A stretch of DNA of 19,024 nucleotides from Methanobrevibacter ruminantium (GTDB lineage: Archaea > Methanobacteriota > Methanobacteria > Methanobacteriales > Methanobacteriaceae). This document shows positions 2,411 to 12,513 of the stretch, in pieces (within the stretch, counting starts at the first letter, position 1; every line of letters begins with the position of its first letter). The position numbers and the translations under genes were made by a program. The stretch covers positions 1 through 19,024 of the forward strand of contig NZ_JAEDCO010000031.1 of NCBI RefSeq assembly GCF_016294135.1, written 5' to 3'. The notes under the pieces were generated by a model, which made no database searches, had not been told where the DNA came from, and was given only the letters and a program-made list of their open reading frames with translations.

Positions 2411-3472
2411 ATGAAAATTTTAGCTATTGATGTAGGAACCGGTACTGAAGACATCTTATTGTATGACAGTGAAAAAGAGATAGAAAATTCAATGAAATTG
2501 GTCATTCCGTCTCCCCATTTAACCATTGGCCAGATGATATCAGAATGTGAAAGTGACATTTACTTTGGTGGCGTCATCATGGGAGGGGGAAAGATCAAGG
2601 ATAGATGTCTTGAACATATGGAAAAAGGATATAAGGTCGTTTTTGAAGATTTGGCGGCAAGAACAATCCGTGACAATATAGATCAAGTAAAGTCTTATGG
2701 ATTTGAAATAGCAGAGGATAATGCATATGAAAATGATCCTACCTATTCCAATTATGCAAAAATTTCATTAAAAGACGTTGATGTAAACCATTTAATTGAC
2801 ATATTCTCTTCTTTTGACCTTGACTTGAGCGTGGATGAGCTCATTGTAGCTGTTCAAGATCATGGATACAGTGATGATATGGGAGATAGAGACTTCAGAT
2901 TCGAGAAAATCAAGGAAAAGCTTCCAGAACCTATGGAGCCGGAAACATTTGCAATGGAAGCTGAAGAAGTTCCTGAATACTTTACAAGAATGCAATCCGT
3001 CATCAAGTCATTAGCTAAAGAGAATCCTGAATTCAAGCCGGTTCTCATGGATACCAAGTTTGCATCAATCGCTGGAGTATGCTACGATAAGGAAGTTCTA
3101 AAGCTAAACAGCTTTGTTGTTATGGATATAGGCAATGGACATACTACTGTAGCATCAATTGAAGACGGTAAAATACAAGGAGTATTCGAGCACCACACAA
3201 GAGATTTAACCTCTCAAAGACTTGAAGAACTAGTCTTAGCCCTTGCTGACGGAACAATCAAGCATGAGGATGTCCATAGTGAAGGAGGGCACGGCGCATT
3301 TGCATTGAATCCTATATCTAAATTGGAAAAGGTAATTGTTGCTGGCCCAAAAAGAGCATTGATTGAAGGCACAGATCTTGACTATTATCATGCAGCTCCA
3401 GGTGGAGATGTTATGATGACCGGTACTGTTGGCCTTGTAAAGTCAATGGAATTCCTAAGAAAAAATAAATAA
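2411..3472 (+). CDS. DUF1786-family protein (ASKHA/actin-like ATPase fold; often annotated pyruvate formate-lyase activating enzyme-related)
   Basis: This is a 353-aa ORF. The N-terminal ILAIDVGTGTEDILLYD phosphate-1 motif and the later VVMDIGNGHT motif are typical of the sugar-kinase/actin fold. There is no Shine-Dalgarno site. An AT-rich TATA-like TTTAAATATT lies ~25 nt upstream, suggesting a leaderless or short-leader mRNA. Confidence 0.7.
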   Translation: MKILAIDVGTGTEDILLYDSEKEIENSMKLVIPSPHLTIGQMISECESDIYFGGVIMGGGKIKDRCLEHMEKGYKVVFEDLAARTIRDNIDQVKSYGFEIAEDNAYENDPTYSNYAKISLKDVDVNHLIDIFSSFDLDLSVDELIVAVQDHGYSDDMGDRDFRFEKIKEKLPEPMEPETFAMEAEEVPEYFTRMQSVIKSLAKENPEFKPVLMDTKFASIAGVCYDKEVLKLNSFVVMDIGNGHTTVASIEDGKIQGVFEHHTRDLTSQRLEELVLALADGTIKHEDVHSEGGHGAFALNPISKLEKVIVAGPKRALIEGTDLDYYHAAPGGDVMMTGTVGLVKSMEFLRKNK

Positions 3473-3901
3473 AAAAATAATAAAATATTAAATAAGATTA
3501 TAAATTATATAATTAAATTATTAATATAATTAGATTTAATAATTTTAAATAAATTTAAATAAATTAATTATAATTTTATTTATCTTATATATTTACACGC
3601 ATTTTTTCTTATTTTTCTATTTTTTTCAGTTACTTTTATCCTTTATTCGGTAATTTTTTTTCTAAAATTTCATCATTTCCCAGTTACTTTTTTATTTTTC
3701 CTTGCAACTTTTTTGAATATACAGTAAATTTTTTTTACAATATATTTTGAGTAGCAGTGAAATTTTTCATCGATATTATCATTGATATTTTCTTGATATT
3801 TGGGAATATATAAAAAAAGTTTATAATGGATTAATACTAATATAACAATTGATAATATTAATTAATAACAATTTTATTTTATACAATAAACGAGGCATAA
3901 T

Positions 3902-4607: not shown

Positions 4608-5465
4608 ATGCCAACTGTAGACACTTTTCTTCCAGACATTATACAAAGCACTTTTTTCTCTGGATACACTGTTTTCAATACAGTGGTGTATACCTTGATT
4701 TTAGTGGTATTCATATTGGCAATTATCAAAATGTTTAAGAAGTTGGAGATTGACCCGCTATCAATTTTCTATTCAATCATCCCATTTATTTTTCTTGGAT
4801 CATCCACTCGCGCTTTAGTTGATAATGGAGTTTATCCAAAAACAGTTTTTCTAATTACTCCAGGACTTTATATTCTTGTAGGATTGATAACAATCCTGTC
4901 ATTCTTATTTTGCATATGCCTATTTACAAAAAAAGGGATTGATTACAGGTATTCGTTGTTTTCCATAGGAATAATTTTTTCATTGCCTAATATGATCTCA
5001 TTCTCAAATGTGAATTCTACAGCAATAATTCATGTCATATTGACATGGATATTCACATCTTTGATATTTATTGGGCTCGTGTTTTTAGTTTTATATATTA
5101 AGAACAATATTCTTGACAGTATTGATAAGATTGACCTTTCCAAGTTCATTGCAAAAATGAAAAAATATAAAATCAATTTTTCAATTGTGCTAGCACATTT
5201 GTTCGATGCATCAACAACATATGTTGCTGTAGAATACTTCAATTATTCAGAACAGCATGTTTTACCAAATGCTCTAAATCAGTTATTCGATACATATCTT
5301 ACTTTATTTCCTATGAAAATTATAGTAATCGTTGCAGTCTTATACATAATCGATCAATATTTCGATGACTTAACTATAAAAAATCTATTAAAATTAACAG
5401 TATTTGTATTAGGATTAGCCCCAGGTTTGAGGAATATTTTGACCATGGCTCTCGCAACAATATAA
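4608..5465 (+). CDS. Polytopic membrane protein, DUF63-like (285 aa)
   Basis: It has about 7-8 hydrophobic helices. A GAGGTG Shine-Dalgarno lies at 4591-4596. It starts 40 bp after the PHP gene on the same strand, so it is probably co-transcribed. The family assignment is from memory of archaeal DUF63 proteins. Confidence 0.6.
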   Translation: MPTVDTFLPDIIQSTFFSGYTVFNTVVYTLILVVFILAIIKMFKKLEIDPLSIFYSIIPFIFLGSSTRALVDNGVYPKTVFLITPGLYILVGLITILSFLFCICLFTKKGIDYRYSLFSIGIIFSLPNMISFSNVNSTAIIHVILTWIFTSLIFIGLVFLVLYIKNNILDSIDKIDLSKFIAKMKKYKINFSIVLAHLFDASTTYVAVEYFNYSEQHVLPNALNQLFDTYLTLFPMKIIVIVAVLYIIDQYFDDLTIKNLLKLTVFVLGLAPGLRNILTMALATI

Positions 5466-5579
5466 GTTAAAATTTAATAATTTTTTTTAATTATTTTATC
5501 CTTGAAAAAAAATAAAAGATAGAATTAGAAAAAAATTTTTTGTGATAAAAAAAGAAAATTTTTAAAATTAAAAAAAAGT

Positions 5580-7115
5580 TTAGCTATTTTTCTCAATAGC
5601 CAATAATCTGTTGATTGAGTTGATTACCGCAACTACACTTGAGATGATTACGTCCTCTCTTGTAGCTCTTCCTGTTGCCCTATGGCCCTCCTTGTCTGAA
5701 ATCACTACAAAGGTTTCTGCCAATGCATCGGTACCACCGCTTACAGCCTCAAGTCTGTACTCTTCAAGGTTAATGTCAACGGTTTCCTTTACAAGTGACT
5801 TGATTGCACCGATAGCAGCATCAACTGGACCCACTCCAATCTGAGAGGTTTCAATGACTTTTCCTTCAATTGAAAGCCTTACAGTTGCTGTTGCAGATAC
5901 AGATTCCCCAGTCATTACACTCATTCCAAGTAGCTTGATGTACTCTTTGCCACTTGTACTCAATTCTGTAATTGCAATTGATTTCAAGTCCTCATCTGTA
6001 ATGCATTTACCTTTATCGCCAAGTGTTTTCACTTGATTGTAAATGTTTTCGAATTGCTTAGGACTTACCTCTATATTGAACTCTTCCAATTTGGACTTTA
6101 TTCCAGCATGGCCGGTATGCTTTCCAAGGGCAATTCTTCTTTTGTGACCTACAAGTTCAGGGGGAATAGGTTCATATGTGGAACTGTTTTTCAATATTCC
6201 ATCTACATGGATGCCTGATTCATGAGCGAATGCATTTTCCCCAACTATAGGTTTTGTAGGAGGCATCTTTATACCTGTAATGGATCCTATGAAATTGGAA
6301 GTGTCATAGAGTTTAGTTGTATCCACACCGATATTTGCTTCATAAGCAATCTTTAAGCTCACTACAAGTTCCTCTAGAGAGGTGTTTCCAGCTCTCTCAC
6401 CGATACCGTTAATTGTACAATGAGCCTGATTTGCACCTTCTTCAATACCAATGATTGAATTTGATACTGCAAGTCCAAAGTCATTGTGGAAATGAAGGCT
6501 TATCGGAACATTGATTTTCTTTCTTAAAATCCTTATCAAATCTCTTGTAGTGGATGGAACTAGAATTCCTACAGTGTCGGGCACATTTATTATGTCTGCT
6601 CCTGCACCTTCAACACCTTTGTAGAATTCTATTAGGTAATTAAGTTCTGTTCTTGTAGCGTCTTCTGCTGAAAATTCCACAGTAAGGCCATGGTCCTTAG
6701 CATATTCAACCGCTTCAATAGCTTGATTCAATATTTCCTCTTTTGACTTTTTCAATTTATAGTCTCTATGAAGTGGGGAAGTTCCAATAAACAAATGTGC
6801 ATATGATAAGTCAGAGTCGATCACTGCATCGATATCCTTTTTCAATACTCTTGCAAGACCGCATAAATTGGATTTGAATCCTAATTCCACCATTCTTTTA
6901 GCAGCCTTTCTTTCACCTTCTGATACAGTTGGAAAACCCATTTCTATGGTGTCCACTCCAAGCTCATCCAGCTTTTGAGCTATCTTAATTTTCTCATCTA
7001 CTGTTAAAGCGATGCCTGGAGCCTGTTCCCCATCCCTTAAGGTTGTATCAAAGATTCTGATCTTATCAGGAATCTTCAATTCTTCCTTCACAACATCAAT
7101 GTTTATTGCATTCAT
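5580..7115 (-). CDS. leuA: 2-isopropylmalate synthase / (R)-citramalate synthase family enzyme (511 aa) with a C-terminal LeuA-type regulatory domain
   Basis: It has IRIFDTTLRDGEQAPG, HFHNDFGLAV and the ESGIH motif of the DRE-TIM HMGL-like aldolase family. The ~130-aa C-terminal domain matches the LeuA dimerisation/allosteric domain. LeuA and CimA cannot be separated by eye. Confidence 0.85.
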   Translation of the reverse strand: MNAINIDVVKEELKIPDKIRIFDTTLRDGEQAPGIALTVDEKIKIAQKLDELGVDTIEMGFPTVSEGERKAAKRMVELGFKSNLCGLARVLKKDIDAVIDSDLSYAHLFIGTSPLHRDYKLKKSKEEILNQAIEAVEYAKDHGLTVEFSAEDATRTELNYLIEFYKGVEGAGADIINVPDTVGILVPSTTRDLIRILRKKINVPISLHFHNDFGLAVSNSIIGIEEGANQAHCTINGIGERAGNTSLEELVVSLKIAYEANIGVDTTKLYDTSNFIGSITGIKMPPTKPIVGENAFAHESGIHVDGILKNSSTYEPIPPELVGHKRRIALGKHTGHAGIKSKLEEFNIEVSPKQFENIYNQVKTLGDKGKCITDEDLKSIAITELSTSGKEYIKLLGMSVMTGESVSATATVRLSIEGKVIETSQIGVGPVDAAIGAIKSLVKETVDINLEEYRLEAVSGGTDALAETFVVISDKEGHRATGRATREDVIISSVVAVINSINRLLAIEKNS

Positions 7116-7215: not shown

Positions 7216-8331
7216 TTAATAATTGTCTAAAGCTGACTGGTAGTTACCATCCAATTTAATGTATGGTTCAGCTCTTTTTACAACAACCCCAATTCTTTGA
7301 AGCTCTTCCAGTTTCTTGAATGGTTTGTTTTTGCGTATTGCCATAATTTTCCTTGCAGATTTAGGGCCGATTCCTGGCACTCGTATAAGTTTTTTATAGG
7401 AAGCGTAGTTAATTTCTACAGGGAAAATGTCCATTTCCCTTGCAGCCAATATCTTCGGATCTTCCTTTAAGGATAATTTGTCATTCTCATCAAATACAAG
7501 TTCCTTCACATCAAACTTATAATCGCTTATCAAGGCATCAGCATGATAGAGTTTTGCAGTTCTATCTGTATTGCAGGATTCCTTTTTCTCAAATTCTGTT
7601 CCTTCTACAGGTGAAAATGCACTGAAGTAGCTACGTCTCAAGTCCACTTTCTTATACAGGCTTTCCATTCTTTTAAGGATTTCAAGGTCTGTTTCATCAT
7701 TTGCACCTACAATCAATTGTGTGGTATGGCCGGATTTTGCAAAGCTTGGATTCTTTCTAGCTATTTCATTCATCCAATCAAGCCTTTTTAGAATATCCTT
7801 GTTGTAATCCTTTGTGCTTGTGATTTCATTAAGGCCATCTTTTGTAGCGGCTTCAATGTTTAGGCTTACCCTATTTGCCAAACTCATTGCCCTTTTGATG
7901 GAATCCTTTGATGCACCAGGAATGATTTTAAGATGTATGTAATCATCATATCCATAGTCCTTTCTTAGTATCCTTGCAGTCTCTATGGTCTTTTCCATCG
8001 TGTTGTCTATTGTATCTCCAATTCCGGAACTTAAAAATAGACCATTTACATAACCGTTGTTGTAGTAATGAAGGAATGCTCTTGAAAGCTCTTCAGGACT
8101 TAATTCAAGACGGGTGAAATTGCGTTTGCTTTGGTTTATGCAATATTTGCAGTCGTTTTTGCACTTGTTTGTCATCAATGTCTTAAAGAGGGGTATCTTG
8201 CATCCATTATGTCCAGTGGCATGATAAATCCCAGGGAGATTCACCTGTGAGCTCTTGCTATGGCTGACATAATCGCACAGATCATATTGTGCATTATCTG
8301 CCAAAACCTGCATTTTTTCTAATGTAGACAT
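7216..8331 (-). CDS. Putative DNA modification/repair radical SAM protein (TIGR03916-like) with a C-terminal helix-hairpin-helix
   Basis: It has the CxxxCxxC cluster motif (CKNDCKYCINQ), the N-terminal AQYDLCD motif and a C-terminal HhH (LIRVPGIGPKSARKIMAIR). The length is 371 aa. Confidence 0.75.
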   Translation of the reverse strand: MSTLEKMQVLADNAQYDLCDYVSHSKSSQVNLPGIYHATGHNGCKIPLFKTLMTNKCKNDCKYCINQSKRNFTRLELSPEELSRAFLHYYNNGYVNGLFLSSGIGDTIDNTMEKTIETARILRKDYGYDDYIHLKIIPGASKDSIKRAMSLANRVSLNIEAATKDGLNEITSTKDYNKDILKRLDWMNEIARKNPSFAKSGHTTQLIVGANDETDLEILKRMESLYKKVDLRRSYFSAFSPVEGTEFEKKESCNTDRTAKLYHADALISDYKFDVKELVFDENDKLSLKEDPKILAAREMDIFPVEINYASYKKLIRVPGIGPKSARKIMAIRKNKPFKKLEELQRIGVVVKRAEPYIKLDGNYQSALDNY

Positions 8332-10110: not shown

Positions 10111-10677
10111 AATTTTATTTTTTCTTTAACTTTTTAATATTATTATTTCTATTTCTATTTTTTATTTCCATGAACTTTTTTTAAAATTTATTTTAGTATA
10201 ATGTATACGATTTTTTCTTAAATTTTTTTACAATATACAAAATTTTTGAATTTTTCATAAAATTTTTCTCATAAAAAAGTATTACTTTATGATCAATGAG
10301 GATTTTTTCCTTTTCAATTTTCAAATTTGAAAATCTATTTAAATTTATTATTTTATTTTGAAACTTGAGTTTTTTTAGCTATTTTTTTAAATAACTATAA
10401 TTAATCTTTATTTTTTTAAAATAATTATTTTAAACTATTTTTTATATCAATTTTTTCAATGCCTTTTGTAACTTTTTGTAGATACAACGTTAACTCAATG
10501 TTATTACATGCTATATTTTTGTACATTTATGTATATGGATTCAGTATTTTTTACTACTTTTTCTAAATTTTTAAATTATGGCTGGGATCTTCAATTTTTT
10601 CAATAAATCTTCATGATAATATCATTTGGGTTTCTGCAGATTTTTTGAAAATTTCATTTCACATTTTGTAACTCAAA

Positions 10678-10694
10678 TTTTACACTTGAAATGG
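10678..10694 (+). other. ORB-like element 1: TTTTACACTTGAAATGG, preceded by TTTGTAACTCAAA (10665-10677)
   Basis: The core TACACTTGAAAT lies at 10681-10692. It resembles the archaeal Orc1/Cdc6 mini-ORB (TCCAGTGGAAA type; a TACA-N-TTGAAA variant is recalled from Methanothermobacter). Confidence 0.4.
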
Positions 10695-10745
10695 CACCCG
10701 CTATTTTTTTCACCTTTTTTCAAATTTTCAGATTTTCTCAAAAAA

Positions 10746-10765
10746 GTGATAACTCAAATTATCAC
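10746..10765. repeat. Inverted repeat GTGATAA-N6-TTATCAC
   Basis: GTGATAA lies at 10746-10752 and TTATCAC at 10759-10765, separated by CTCAAA. These are the same heptamers and the same 6-bp spacing as the 731-752 palindrome, but in the everted orientation. The repeat overlaps a TAACTCAAA motif copy. Confidence 0.6.
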
Positions 10766-10991
10766 AGCTAAACTATTGATGTAATATCATTATGACTCCT
10801 CATCATTTTTTTATAATTTTTTTCAATTTTTTGAGTTACAAATTTATTTTTTTTATAGTTTTTTAAATTAAGTTTATATGCAATGAGCTAACATATATAA
10901 TAATGTTGATAATTTTTTATTTTATGATTATATTATCAATTTAAAAAAAATTTCTTTGATAATATCAATTTTTTCAATACGAAGGTATTTT

Positions 10992-11687
10992 ATGTTAGAA
11001 AAGGAAGTCAAACAATATAAGAGAGGAAACAGTTTCACTTATCGTATCGACCTATCAAAAAAAGATAATTTTGAAGGTGGGGAGAAAGTAATGATTCTTA
11101 GGATAAGTGAATATGAATCTTACCTAAATGAGATCGATGATCTTAAAGCAAAAATTGACGATAATAAAAATACCATTTCAGACTTGAAGCAATCACGCAG
11201 TGAAGCGGATTCTTCCATAAATGAAATTATAGAACAAAGGAATCAGGAGATTTCAGATAAGAATAAGGAAATCATGGACCTGGTTGAAGAAAACAAATCT
11301 GCCATTGCAAAATGCTATGAAATTATTGATGAAAAAGATCAGCTTATCAAACAGGCTAATGAAGAGATTAGGCTTGAAAGGGCTAAGTCAGATTTAGCGA
11401 TGCAAAAGGCTGAGGAAAATCTCCTTGAAGAGAGGAAAAGACATGATGAACTTGTTTTAGAAAAGGACAAGGAGTTGCATAATGTTAACCAGCAGCTTCA
11501 GGACAGCCTTAAAGAAATCGCTTATAAAGACCAATTGTTAACTGCTGATAGGCTTTTAATCGACAGATATAAAAACAGAAGCTTCATTGACCGTCTCTTA
11601 AACAGACAACCTGATGACAGTGACTTGCAAATTGACAGCAAGCCAAAGGAAACTTATGTCTTGGAAGCTGAAAAACAAGATGATTAA
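10992..11687 (+). CDS. Orphan coiled-coil protein (231 aa from ATG 10992) with a possible AbrB/MazE-like (SpoVT-AbrB) N-terminal domain
   Basis: A GAAGGT Shine-Dalgarno at 10981-10986 lies 5 nt before ATG 10992, so I prefer that start to the TTG at 10956 in the ORF track. Residues 7-40 (VKQYKRGNSFTYRIDLSKKDNFEGGEKVMILRI) resemble the MazE/AbrB VKxWGNSxAVRIP...V.I pattern. Residues ~45-200 are heptad-rich and E/K/D/L/I-rich, consistent with a coiled coil. Confidence 0.65.
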   Translation: MLEKEVKQYKRGNSFTYRIDLSKKDNFEGGEKVMILRISEYESYLNEIDDLKAKIDDNKNTISDLKQSRSEADSSINEIIEQRNQEISDKNKEIMDLVEENKSAIAKCYEIIDEKDQLIKQANEEIRLERAKSDLAMQKAEENLLEERKRHDELVLEKDKELHNVNQQLQDSLKEIAYKDQLLTADRLLIDRYKNRSFIDRLLNRQPDDSDLQIDSKPKETYVLEAEKQDD

Positions 11688-11694
11688 TTCAAGC

Positions 11695-11712
11695 TTTTTG
11701 ACTCGTCAAAAA
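11695..11712 (+). terminator. Palindrome TTTTTGAC-TC-GTCAAAAA followed by T-runs, 8 nt after the coiled-coil gene stop
   Basis: It has 8-bp arms. A further GTCAA-N5-TTGAC lies at 11705-11719, followed by CTTTTTTCTATTTTT. A protein-binding site is an alternative reading. Confidence 0.4.
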
Positions 11713-11926
11713 CCTTGACCAAACTTTTTTCTATTTTTAACTTATATTACTTTTTATTATTCTTTTTTCATTATCTTTTCATTATTTTTTTATTCTCTTT
11801 TTATTTCTCTTTTTATTATAAATATTGCATCTACTTTTCAATGTCATGTTATCTTCAATTCATATTCATTTTTGATCTATTGAGTTGCATTTTTTCACAT
11901 ATTTTCATTGTAACTCTTAGACATAA

Positions 11927-11938
11927 ATTTCAACTGTA
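11927..11938 (-). other. ORB-like element 2 (reverse strand TACAGTTGAAAT), with GTTAACTCA adjacent (reverse strand of 11942-11950)
   Basis: Plus-strand ATTTCAACTGTA lies at 11927-11938. The reverse complement of 11925-11953 is CAGGTTAACTCATTATACAGTTGAAATTT. This has the same two blocks as element 1 (TAACTCA + TACA-S-TTGAAAT). Confidence 0.4.
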
Positions 11939-12000
11939 TAATGAGTTAACCTGTTATTATCATTTTTTGCCAATTTTAGGGCCAGAAATTCCTTGACGTA

Positions 12001-12014
12001 AGTTTCAAGTGTAA
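12001..12014 (-). other. ORB-like element 3 (reverse strand TTTACACTTGAAAC)
   Basis: Plus-strand GTTTCAAGTGTAAA lies at 12001-12014. It is identical to element 1 over TTTACACTTGAAA. A degenerate fourth copy (reverse strand TGACATTTGAAA) lies at 12039-12050. Confidence 0.4.
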
Positions 12015-12513
12015 ATTTTTTTGCAATTTTTCAAATATTTTTCAAATGTCATTATCAAAACATAATCATGTTAATTTATTTTCATCATCATTTCAAATCT
12101 TTTGTAATAACATCTATTTTGAGGATTTTTTCCACTCAAAAATGATATTATCACGAAATTTTCATAAATTTTTCAATTTTTTTCAAGATCCTTATCAAAA
12201 TTTCATGATTTTTGTATTACTTGGCGATTTTTTTATCTATTGGAACATTTGTTTTATAGTTTTAAAATTATTTTCTAAAAAAAACATCTTTTTTTCAATA
12301 TCTTGTATACTTTTTATTTTCACAAAATATTTTTCGATACACTTTTTTCCTGTTCAATGGAAAAATTTTTCCAATTTTTTTTGAGTAAGATGATTTCAAT
12401 GACATTCAAAATCCTTAAGCTTGATTTAAAAATTTCTTAATTAATTTCCCATTTAATAAACTTATATAATAGTTTCAACAAACTCTAAAATAACGCTTAT
12501 ATAAGGGGTTTTT

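Follow-up and report, generated by a model that had tools for sequence, protein, structure and literature searches.

We analysed a 19,024-bp stretch of Methanobrevibacter ruminantium DNA (the window, whose positions serve as coordinates below; positions in related loci follow an L number), in which a gene for a coiled-coil protein is bracketed by three short elements resembling archaeal origin recognition boxes (ORBs). The elements share the motif TACASTTGAAA, found at 10681-10691 on the plus strand and at 11928-11938 and 12003-12013 on the minus strand, and are referred to here as ORB1, ORB2 and ORB3. The window is identical to a stretch of a 497-kb contig in the Methanobrevibacter metagenome-assembled genome (MAG) GCA_004553595.1, and a Pfam search of its 14 larger open reading frames (ORFs) identified ordinary methanogen housekeeping genes. 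No orc1/cdc6 gene was found among these 14 ORFs, in agreement with the first-pass annotation of this DNA, which had proposed the elements as a possible replication origin, nor was one found in any of the 20-kb syntenic loci examined.

The same annotation had counted three copies against about 0.06 expected; this count is exact, and dinucleotide-preserving shuffles (n = 200) give 0.06 per window, with none of the 200 reaching three. For comparison with known ORBs we used the Ori-Finder 2 motif TT[TA]CACTTGAAAT[GTA]T[CT][CG]TC, which was derived from the DoriC origins of Methanobacteriaceae (PMC4164010). ORB1 and ORB3 match its 13-nt core, TT[TA]CACTTGAAAT, at 13 of 13 positions and ORB2 (ATACAGTTGAAAT) at 11 of 13, and the consensus given in the annotation is thus essentially right, the 3' extension fitting less well. 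Single 13-bp mini-ORBs have been reported to be bound by Cdc6-1 of Methanothermobacter thermautotrophicus (PMC1904270). Judged by this comparison, the three elements carry true mini-ORB cores. A degenerate fourth copy had also been suggested. It actually lies at 12051..12040, one base from the coordinates given, and has two mismatches; ORB matches with up to two mismatches are about as frequent in the window as chance would predict (11 observed vs 7.8 in block shuffles), and the motif conserved there is TGTCATTATCA.

The arrangement of the three elements is strongly conserved. Loci were gathered through a CobQ anchor, with one genome per species, and through the genomic contexts of the coiled-coil protein, yielding 15 species-level loci with enough flanking sequence, in which CobQ identity falls to 57%. 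All 15 show the order ORB1(+), coiled-coil gene, ORB2(-), ORB3(-), so that the positions and orientations noted in the window are kept in other Methanobrevibacter genomes, and in all 15 the ORB2-ORB3 start-to-start distance is exactly 75 bp, or about seven helical turns; in one of them (L170), ORB2 carries one mismatch yet occupies the expected position. A 121-nt block covering ORB2 and ORB3 aligns without gaps across 12 species, its central ~30 nt being freely divergent. Measured against the window in the 12-species alignment, column identity is 0.97, 0.93 and 0.89 for the three ORB cores, compared to 0.62 over all noncoding positions; the stretch separating ORB2 from ORB3 scores 0.59 and the spacer that follows the coiled-coil gene 0.44. 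The 252 kb of related Methanobrevibacter locus DNA contains 37 exact cores within the module and only two outside it, which share a single coding position in a LeuA-like gene.

Every genome examined has the module once and in a syntenic position, and it is intact despite a different right-hand neighbour gene in four loci (L013, L020, L023 and L032, the last being M. ruminantium M1). In M1, an insertion sequence (IS) element of the DDE_Tnp_1 type sits between the coiled-coil gene and ORB2/ORB3 (L032:11003-12511), and the pair is nevertheless intact with its 75-bp spacing. As far as these alignments can tell, the position, orientation and 75-bp spacing of the trio are under selection. The DNA directly after the CobQ stop codon (10110) up to 10361, as well as that directly after the coiled-coil stop codon, is unconserved and variable in length.

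Two side observations concern these sequences. The LeuA-like-gene match, in the 3' part of that gene (window 5634-5644 on the plus strand; L032:2195; L034:4118), departs from the core at one base in the window and is perfect in M. ruminantium and M. olleyae; its conservation probably reflects the coding sequence in which it lies. The unconserved spacers grow by short tandem or dispersed T-rich repeats (L013:11500-12350; L009 about 5450-5520), with about 1.1 kb of repeated TTTTTCAATATATTTTTTATACTATTTTTT units after CobQ in L013 and TATATTCTATTA repeats after the coiled-coil gene in L009.

Further conserved blocks extend over ~630 bp before and ~500 bp after the coiled-coil gene, and two recurrent motifs are interleaved in them with the ORBs (Table 1). 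Motif A, of the type GTAACTCA, includes the second block that the first-pass annotation had noticed upstream of two of the elements: GTAACTCA stands 5 nt before ORB1 and TTAACTCA 3 nt before ORB2. The A-type motifs lie at fixed distances from ORB1 and ORB2, and one more lies in the predicted promoter of the coiled-coil gene. The ORB2 core (11927-11940) is centred in a conserved 41-bp composite, between inverted A half-sites reading TAACTC...GAGTTA. Motif B is the palindrome TGATAWTATCA, which, with up to one mismatch allowed, occurs nine times in the window vs 1.5 expected, five of the nine being at the locus. We infer from its likeness to the archaeal TATA consensus that the block at 10870-10902 is the promoter of the coiled-coil gene, in which case the A-type motif inside this block separates the TATA box from the position where transcription should start. 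Elsewhere in the window, one-mismatch B palindromes lie at 3771-3781 (CGATATTATCA) and 3850-3860 (TGATAATATTA), upstream of a PHP-domain gene; therefore, a putative B-site factor may regulate other genes too.

Table 1. Coordinates of the elements and conserved blocks around the coiled-coil gene, in window positions.
Feature	Position	Strand	Remarks
Conserved block AAACTTGAGTTTTTTTAG	10361..10378	+	Left edge of the conserved module; alignment of 11 species
Conserved block TTAACTCAATGtTATTACATGCTATATTTTTGTACATTTATGTATAT	10490..10536	+	Motif A followed directly by a B-like site; conserved runs 10492-10500, 10502-10510, 10514-10519
Motif B, 11-bp palindrome TGATAATATCA	10614..10624	.	Conserved
Motif A GTAACTCA	10668..10675	+	Upstream of ORB1; conserved run 10665-10676
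ORB1 TTTACACTTGAAAT	10679..10692	+	Mini-ORB core, 13/13 consensus positions; column identity 0.97, 12 species
Motif A variant GATAACTCAA	10748..10757	+	Conserved run 10750-10756
B-like site TGTAATATCA	10780..10789	+	Conserved run 10782-10789
Motif A GTAACTCA	10832..10839	-	From the conserved-block comparison
Predicted promoter of the coiled-coil gene AAGTTTATATGCAATGAGcTAACATATATAATA	10870..10902	+	Conserved block; TATA-like TTTATAT at 10873-10879
Motif B palindrome TGATAATATCA	10957..10967	.	5' leader, 25 nt before the ATG
Coiled-coil gene, 231 aa, ortholog of mru_2149	10992..11687	+	Between ORB1 and ORB2
Spacer	11688..11880	.	Very AT-rich, unconserved; 105 to 461 bp between species; identity 0.44
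ORB2 composite	11909..11949	-	Minus-strand reading GTTAACTCA-TTA-TACAGTTGAAAT-TTATGTCTAAGAGTTACA; conserved runs 11909-11922, 11927-11939
Motif A-type sites at ORB2	11911 and 11942(-)		TTAACTCA at 11949..11942, 3 nt before ORB2
B-like site TGTTATTATCA	11952..11962	+	
ORB3 TTTACACTTGAAAC	12001..12014	-	Conserved A-tract before, TTACGTCAAGG after
B-like site TGTCATTATCA	12048..12058	+	Conserved; overlaps the degenerate ORB proposed earlier
Motif B palindrome TGATATTATCA	12143..12153	.	Conserved run 12146-12153

The bracketed gene encodes a protein whose N-terminal 31 residues (MLEKEVKQYKRGNSFTYRIDLSKKDNFEGGE) are 100% invariant among the aligned chromosomal orthologs, even where the remainder is only 50% identical, and which carries a conserved C-terminal motif (YRLLIERYKSRSFIDRLLNR). 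AlphaFold models residues 38-194 as a single long helix (predicted local distance difference test score, pLDDT, above 90) and the N-terminal domain, modelled alone, as a beta-hairpin followed by a short helix (pLDDT 80). Searches of Pfam, NCBIfam, PHROGs and PDB sequences returned no relative of the protein, and IMG/VR, PLSDB and INPHARED held no match to the family. A Foldseek search with the AlphaFold2 model of the N-terminal domain gave nothing with E<1; AbrB-type VapB antitoxins recur among its weak top matches, which is only a hint that the modelled domain might be a swapped-hairpin DNA-binding domain of the AbrB/SpoVT type.

Across 5.8 billion proteins searched, the family is confined to Methanobrevibacter-like sources, the named matches coming only from the M. 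ruminantium/olleyae group and unclassified relatives. Among its more distant members, short paralogs of 141-177 aa carried by mobile elements, four lie beside integrases (L172, L174, L178 and L179). Another lies on contig WRMT01000138.1 (L175; 7951 bp) from a Methanobrevibacter MAG, which has a 127-bp terminal direct overlap and is therefore circular, at about 7.8 kb; the contig also encodes a 700-aa protein. Neither PLSDB nor INPHARED contains a match to this contig, so it may represent a small plasmid or virus that has yet to be described. A sixth contig (L176) carries paralogs together with a D5-like primase-helicase and a PIN toxin. Such paralogs on integrative and plasmid-like elements indicate, by sequence relationship, that the bracketed gene is of mobile-element ancestry.

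ORB-like cores are also found near some of these paralogs. In L176, the 740 bp preceding a tandem pair of paralogs contain three, at 6897(+), 7007(-, one mismatch) and 7323(+), and in L175 a one-mismatch core stands ~70 bp ahead of the paralog's start codon, immediately 5' of a TATA-like box; no core was found in the four other paralog-bearing mobile-element loci. RTAACWY repeats, which resemble motif A, are enriched upstream of the paralogs in four of the six mobile-element loci and in the chromosomal flanks, an enrichment that is only suggestive because the pattern was chosen after inspection of the data. Two further features of these elements were seen in passing. The tandem paralogs of L176 (141 and 160 aa; L176:7440-8100) each follow a near-identical ~90-bp upstream sequence, which looks like a recent tandem duplication, and L179:3773-4073 holds six copies of TTAGATAAC / GTTATCTAA in 300 bp between the integrase gene and a divergently transcribed coiled-coil paralog, where they are candidate operator or arm-type sites.

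Whether the trio forms a replication origin, as the first-pass annotation had suggested, can be judged from the polarity of its elements. The canonical minimal archaeal origin has been described as ORB(-), duplex unwinding element (DUE), ORB(+) (preprint 10.64898/2026.08.15.744077). A Methanosalsum-type orc1-adjacent origin (L177) shows ORB(-) at 3310, an AT-rich stretch at 3351-3447 and then four ORB(+) towards orc1, with the 5' TCCA end of the ORBs towards the unwinding element and the G-string away from it; the Methanobacteriaceae ORB motif is collinear with the L177 motif. At our locus, ORB1(+) is followed by ~1.25 kb including the gene and then by ORB2(-) and ORB3(-), the reverse of the canonical polarity, placing the coiled-coil gene on the 3'-extension side of all three ORBs. 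Neither outer flank has a conserved ORB in the opposite orientation to act as a partner; a candidate at 10309-10330, a degenerate reverse ORB picked up from an inverted repeat, was dropped as it is not conserved. There is no skew inversion at the locus either, the strand component of third-codon GC skew being positive on both sides in all six estimable loci, although this test is weak, with few genes per side and the same genes shared between species. Furthermore, the M1 oriC has been placed immediately upstream of cdc6-1 (mru0001, base 1) by skew and by homology to the M. thermautotrophicus origin (PMC2812497), and mru_2149 lies at ~2.837 Mb of 2.937 Mb in M1, roughly 100 kb from this oriC; the 209-kb distance for M. 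olleyae YLM1, which depends on that record beginning at cdc6, was not counted as evidence. Nor does an initiator gene, a common though not universal neighbour of such origins, adjoin the trio. Because the polarity is reversed, a partner ORB and a skew inversion are lacking and the M1 oriC is elsewhere, reading the sequence as a canonical replication origin is not supported. The annotation's fallback, an Orc1-binding regulatory or relic site, fits better.

We tentatively favour, with a confidence somewhat short of even, the reading that the locus is an orc1-distal, Orc1/Cdc6-binding nucleoprotein module that would regulate, or be co-regulated with, the coiled-coil gene, because this accommodates the ORB cores, the selected geometry, the interleaved sites, the reversed polarity, the distance from oriC and the mobile-element ancestry. 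In the mechanism we propose, the three mini-ORBs together with the interleaved GTAACTCA-type and TGATAWTATCA sites would assemble a protein-DNA complex of fixed geometry around the gene. Cdc6-1 would occupy ORB1 upstream and the phased ORB2/ORB3 pair downstream, with the AAA+-contacting 3' extensions of all three ORBs pointing inward, towards the gene, while the adjacent RTAAC-type sites, including the one in the core promoter, would be bound either by the coiled-coil protein, using its invariant N-terminal hairpin domain, or by another factor. Expression of the gene could in this way be coupled to initiator occupancy and hence to replication or cell-cycle state, and the module, in the way of datA, may in addition retain or titrate initiator close to the origin. 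Several points weigh against this proposal. The conserved extension of ORB2 and ORB3, NTAYGTC, is one nucleotide longer than the published [GTA]T[CT][CG]TC and an inexact fit to it, and that of ORB1 reads rGTAC; origin ORBs entered the comparison through the published family consensus, not through a cdc6-1-adjacent origin of Methanobrevibacter; Orc1/Cdc6 binding at the trio is a prediction; the promoter and regulatory roles are read from sequence only; and the ORB-like cores beside the L176 paralogs would also fit an operator of the protein family or a plasmid-type origin. A more far-reaching form of the proposal, which we consider rather unlikely, is that the module is a cassette for replication control domesticated from a plasmid or provirus, that the coiled-coil protein is a new ORB-associated factor acting with or against Orc1/Cdc6, and that the site serves for titration or timing, or as a conditional secondary origin, in the M. 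ruminantium/olleyae lineage.

The ORB-like cores near this gene family on mobile elements mean that a captured accessory origin has to be weighed as well. According to this explanation, the locus would have been acquired from an integrative plasmid or a virus and would be an accessory, secondary or dormant origin, its ORBs recruiting host Orc1 and MCM and the coiled-coil protein acting as an origin-associated accessory factor. The genuine ORB cores, the long (~630 and ~830 bp), AT-rich and noncoding flanks, and the otherwise exclusive occurrence of the family on the six mobile elements described above would suit such an origin, as would L176, where ORB(-) 7007 and ORB(+) 7323 stand in canonical polarity upstream of the two paralogs; the confinement of named matches to the M. 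ruminantium/olleyae group and unclassified relatives is consistent with capture. On the chromosome, however, the polarity is opposite to ORB(-)/DUE/ORB(+), the flanks hold no conserved partner ORB, the elements bracket a presumably transcribed gene, the strand skew, weak test as it is, does not invert there, and the published M1 origin lies elsewhere, so we judge a captured origin improbable.

Alternatively, the TTACASTTGAAA core could be an operator of the coiled-coil family or of another transcription factor, its likeness to ORBs being coincidental or reflecting competition with Orc1. The recurrence of the core upstream of the L176 paralogs, the one-mismatch copy before the L175 paralog and the joint invariance of the N-terminal domain and the cores could be explained in this manner, whereas the four paralog-bearing loci that lack the core speak against it, and RTAACWY is a better candidate operator for the coiled-coil protein. 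Since a 13-nt identity to a family-wide origin consensus is most simply accounted for by Orc1 recognition, we hold an operator to be unlikely too. The imperfect inverted repeats 1.23 kb apart (motif A with ORB1 against motif A with ORB2) and the rigid 75-bp spacing might suggest a gene for a structured RNA, or else a non-autonomous transposon with ~25-bp inverted repeats at its ends. RNAalifold, however, predicts no base pairs on either strand of the ORB2-ORB3 block in 12 species, and the sole Rfam match is below threshold and lies inside the coiled-coil gene; similarly, the module is single-copy and syntenic, with no target-site duplication visible at the repeat ends. We regard both as very improbable, and the RNA-gene and terminal-inverted-repeat transposon (or miniature inverted-repeat element) readings were dropped.

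Comparison with known systems places the proposed off-origin module in context. The mini-ORBs at oriC of M. thermautotrophicus and other Methanobacteriaceae share the 13-nt core with ORB1 and ORB3, with two differences in ORB2; ORB2 and ORB3 also carry a short, conserved 3' extension with GTC at its end, though in another register than the published one. Unlike that type of oriC, our locus has no adjoining orc1/cdc6, only three copies, and reversed polarity. A closer parallel is the ORB/mini-ORB cluster inside the dp1 gene of Pyrococcus/Thermococcus, which is bound by Cdc6/Orc1 in vivo (PMC1904270). In both cases, at least two initiator boxes are clustered outside the unwinding region in an organisation conserved among relatives within the order or genus, though the dp1 cluster is less than 5 kb from oriC and orc1, whereas the trio is ~100 kb away, intergenic, and brackets an unrelated gene. 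The locus would be a further example of a non-origin ORB cluster, a kind already known. The DnaA boxes of datA and DARS in Escherichia coli are similar in that a few initiator boxes at fixed spacing adjoin sites for other DNA-binding proteins, away from the origin itself but on its side of the chromosome; the resemblance goes no further than analogy, as the initiator is DnaA there and Orc1 here, and our locus is known from its sequence. With Sulfolobus oriC3/WhiP and the accessory or dormant origins of haloarchaea, it shares a lineage-restricted initiator-box module accompanied by a gene with mobile-element relatives; unlike captured archaeal origins, it has no adjoining initiator gene and no inverted-ORB/DUE architecture.

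To our knowledge, the control of replication in methanogens has hardly been studied in vivo, and the single origin of Methanobacteriales rests on skew analysis and in-vitro binding. A conserved initiator-box cluster of fixed geometry, 100 kb off the origin and tied to a mobile-element-derived gene, is a concrete locus at which to ask whether archaeal Orc1/Cdc6, like bacterial DnaA, has regulatory or titration sites away from the origin, and whether methanogen chromosomes contain captured accessory origins. Additionally, genuine ORBs outside origins can mislead motif-based origin predictors.

A literature search on the ORB motif string matched only unrelated primer sequences. The extended ORB motif gave 14 chance matches in viral contigs and, in a metagenome scan, single and apparently random ones among the matches listed, with no ORB cluster and no orc1 gene. 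A search for the cdc6-1-adjacent oriC of Methanobrevibacter with an approximate, Methanosarcinales-like Orc1 query (E = 1e-115 to PDB 2QBY_A) returned at least 120 listed matches, all of Methanosarcinales or Methanoperedens types. In L177, a full ORB with G-string (TCTCCAGTGGAAATAGTGGGGT) was seen at 7824-7845 (+), ~2.6 kb from orc1, within a wyosine radical-SAM gene and shortly after the gene for the PolD small subunit, a position that recalls the Pyrococcus dp1 cluster.

Around the module, the window genes named by Pfam comprise a pyridoxal phosphate (PLP) enzyme, DUF1786, a PHP protein, DUF63, the LeuA-like synthase, a radical-SAM/HhH protein, CobQ, a polymerase-like membrane protein (PF01901), Mtd, HisB and a ModE-like regulator; a search of the window found no tRNA genes. 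The radical-SAM and helix-hairpin-helix protein (7216-8331, minus strand), whose gene adjoins CobQ in all syntenic loci, matches NCBIfam TIGR03916, named 'putative DNA modification/repair radical SAM protein', slightly under its curated cutoff. Finally, past the PLP-enzyme gene, positions 400-830 at the window's left end form a second long, very AT-rich noncoding stretch (15% GC).

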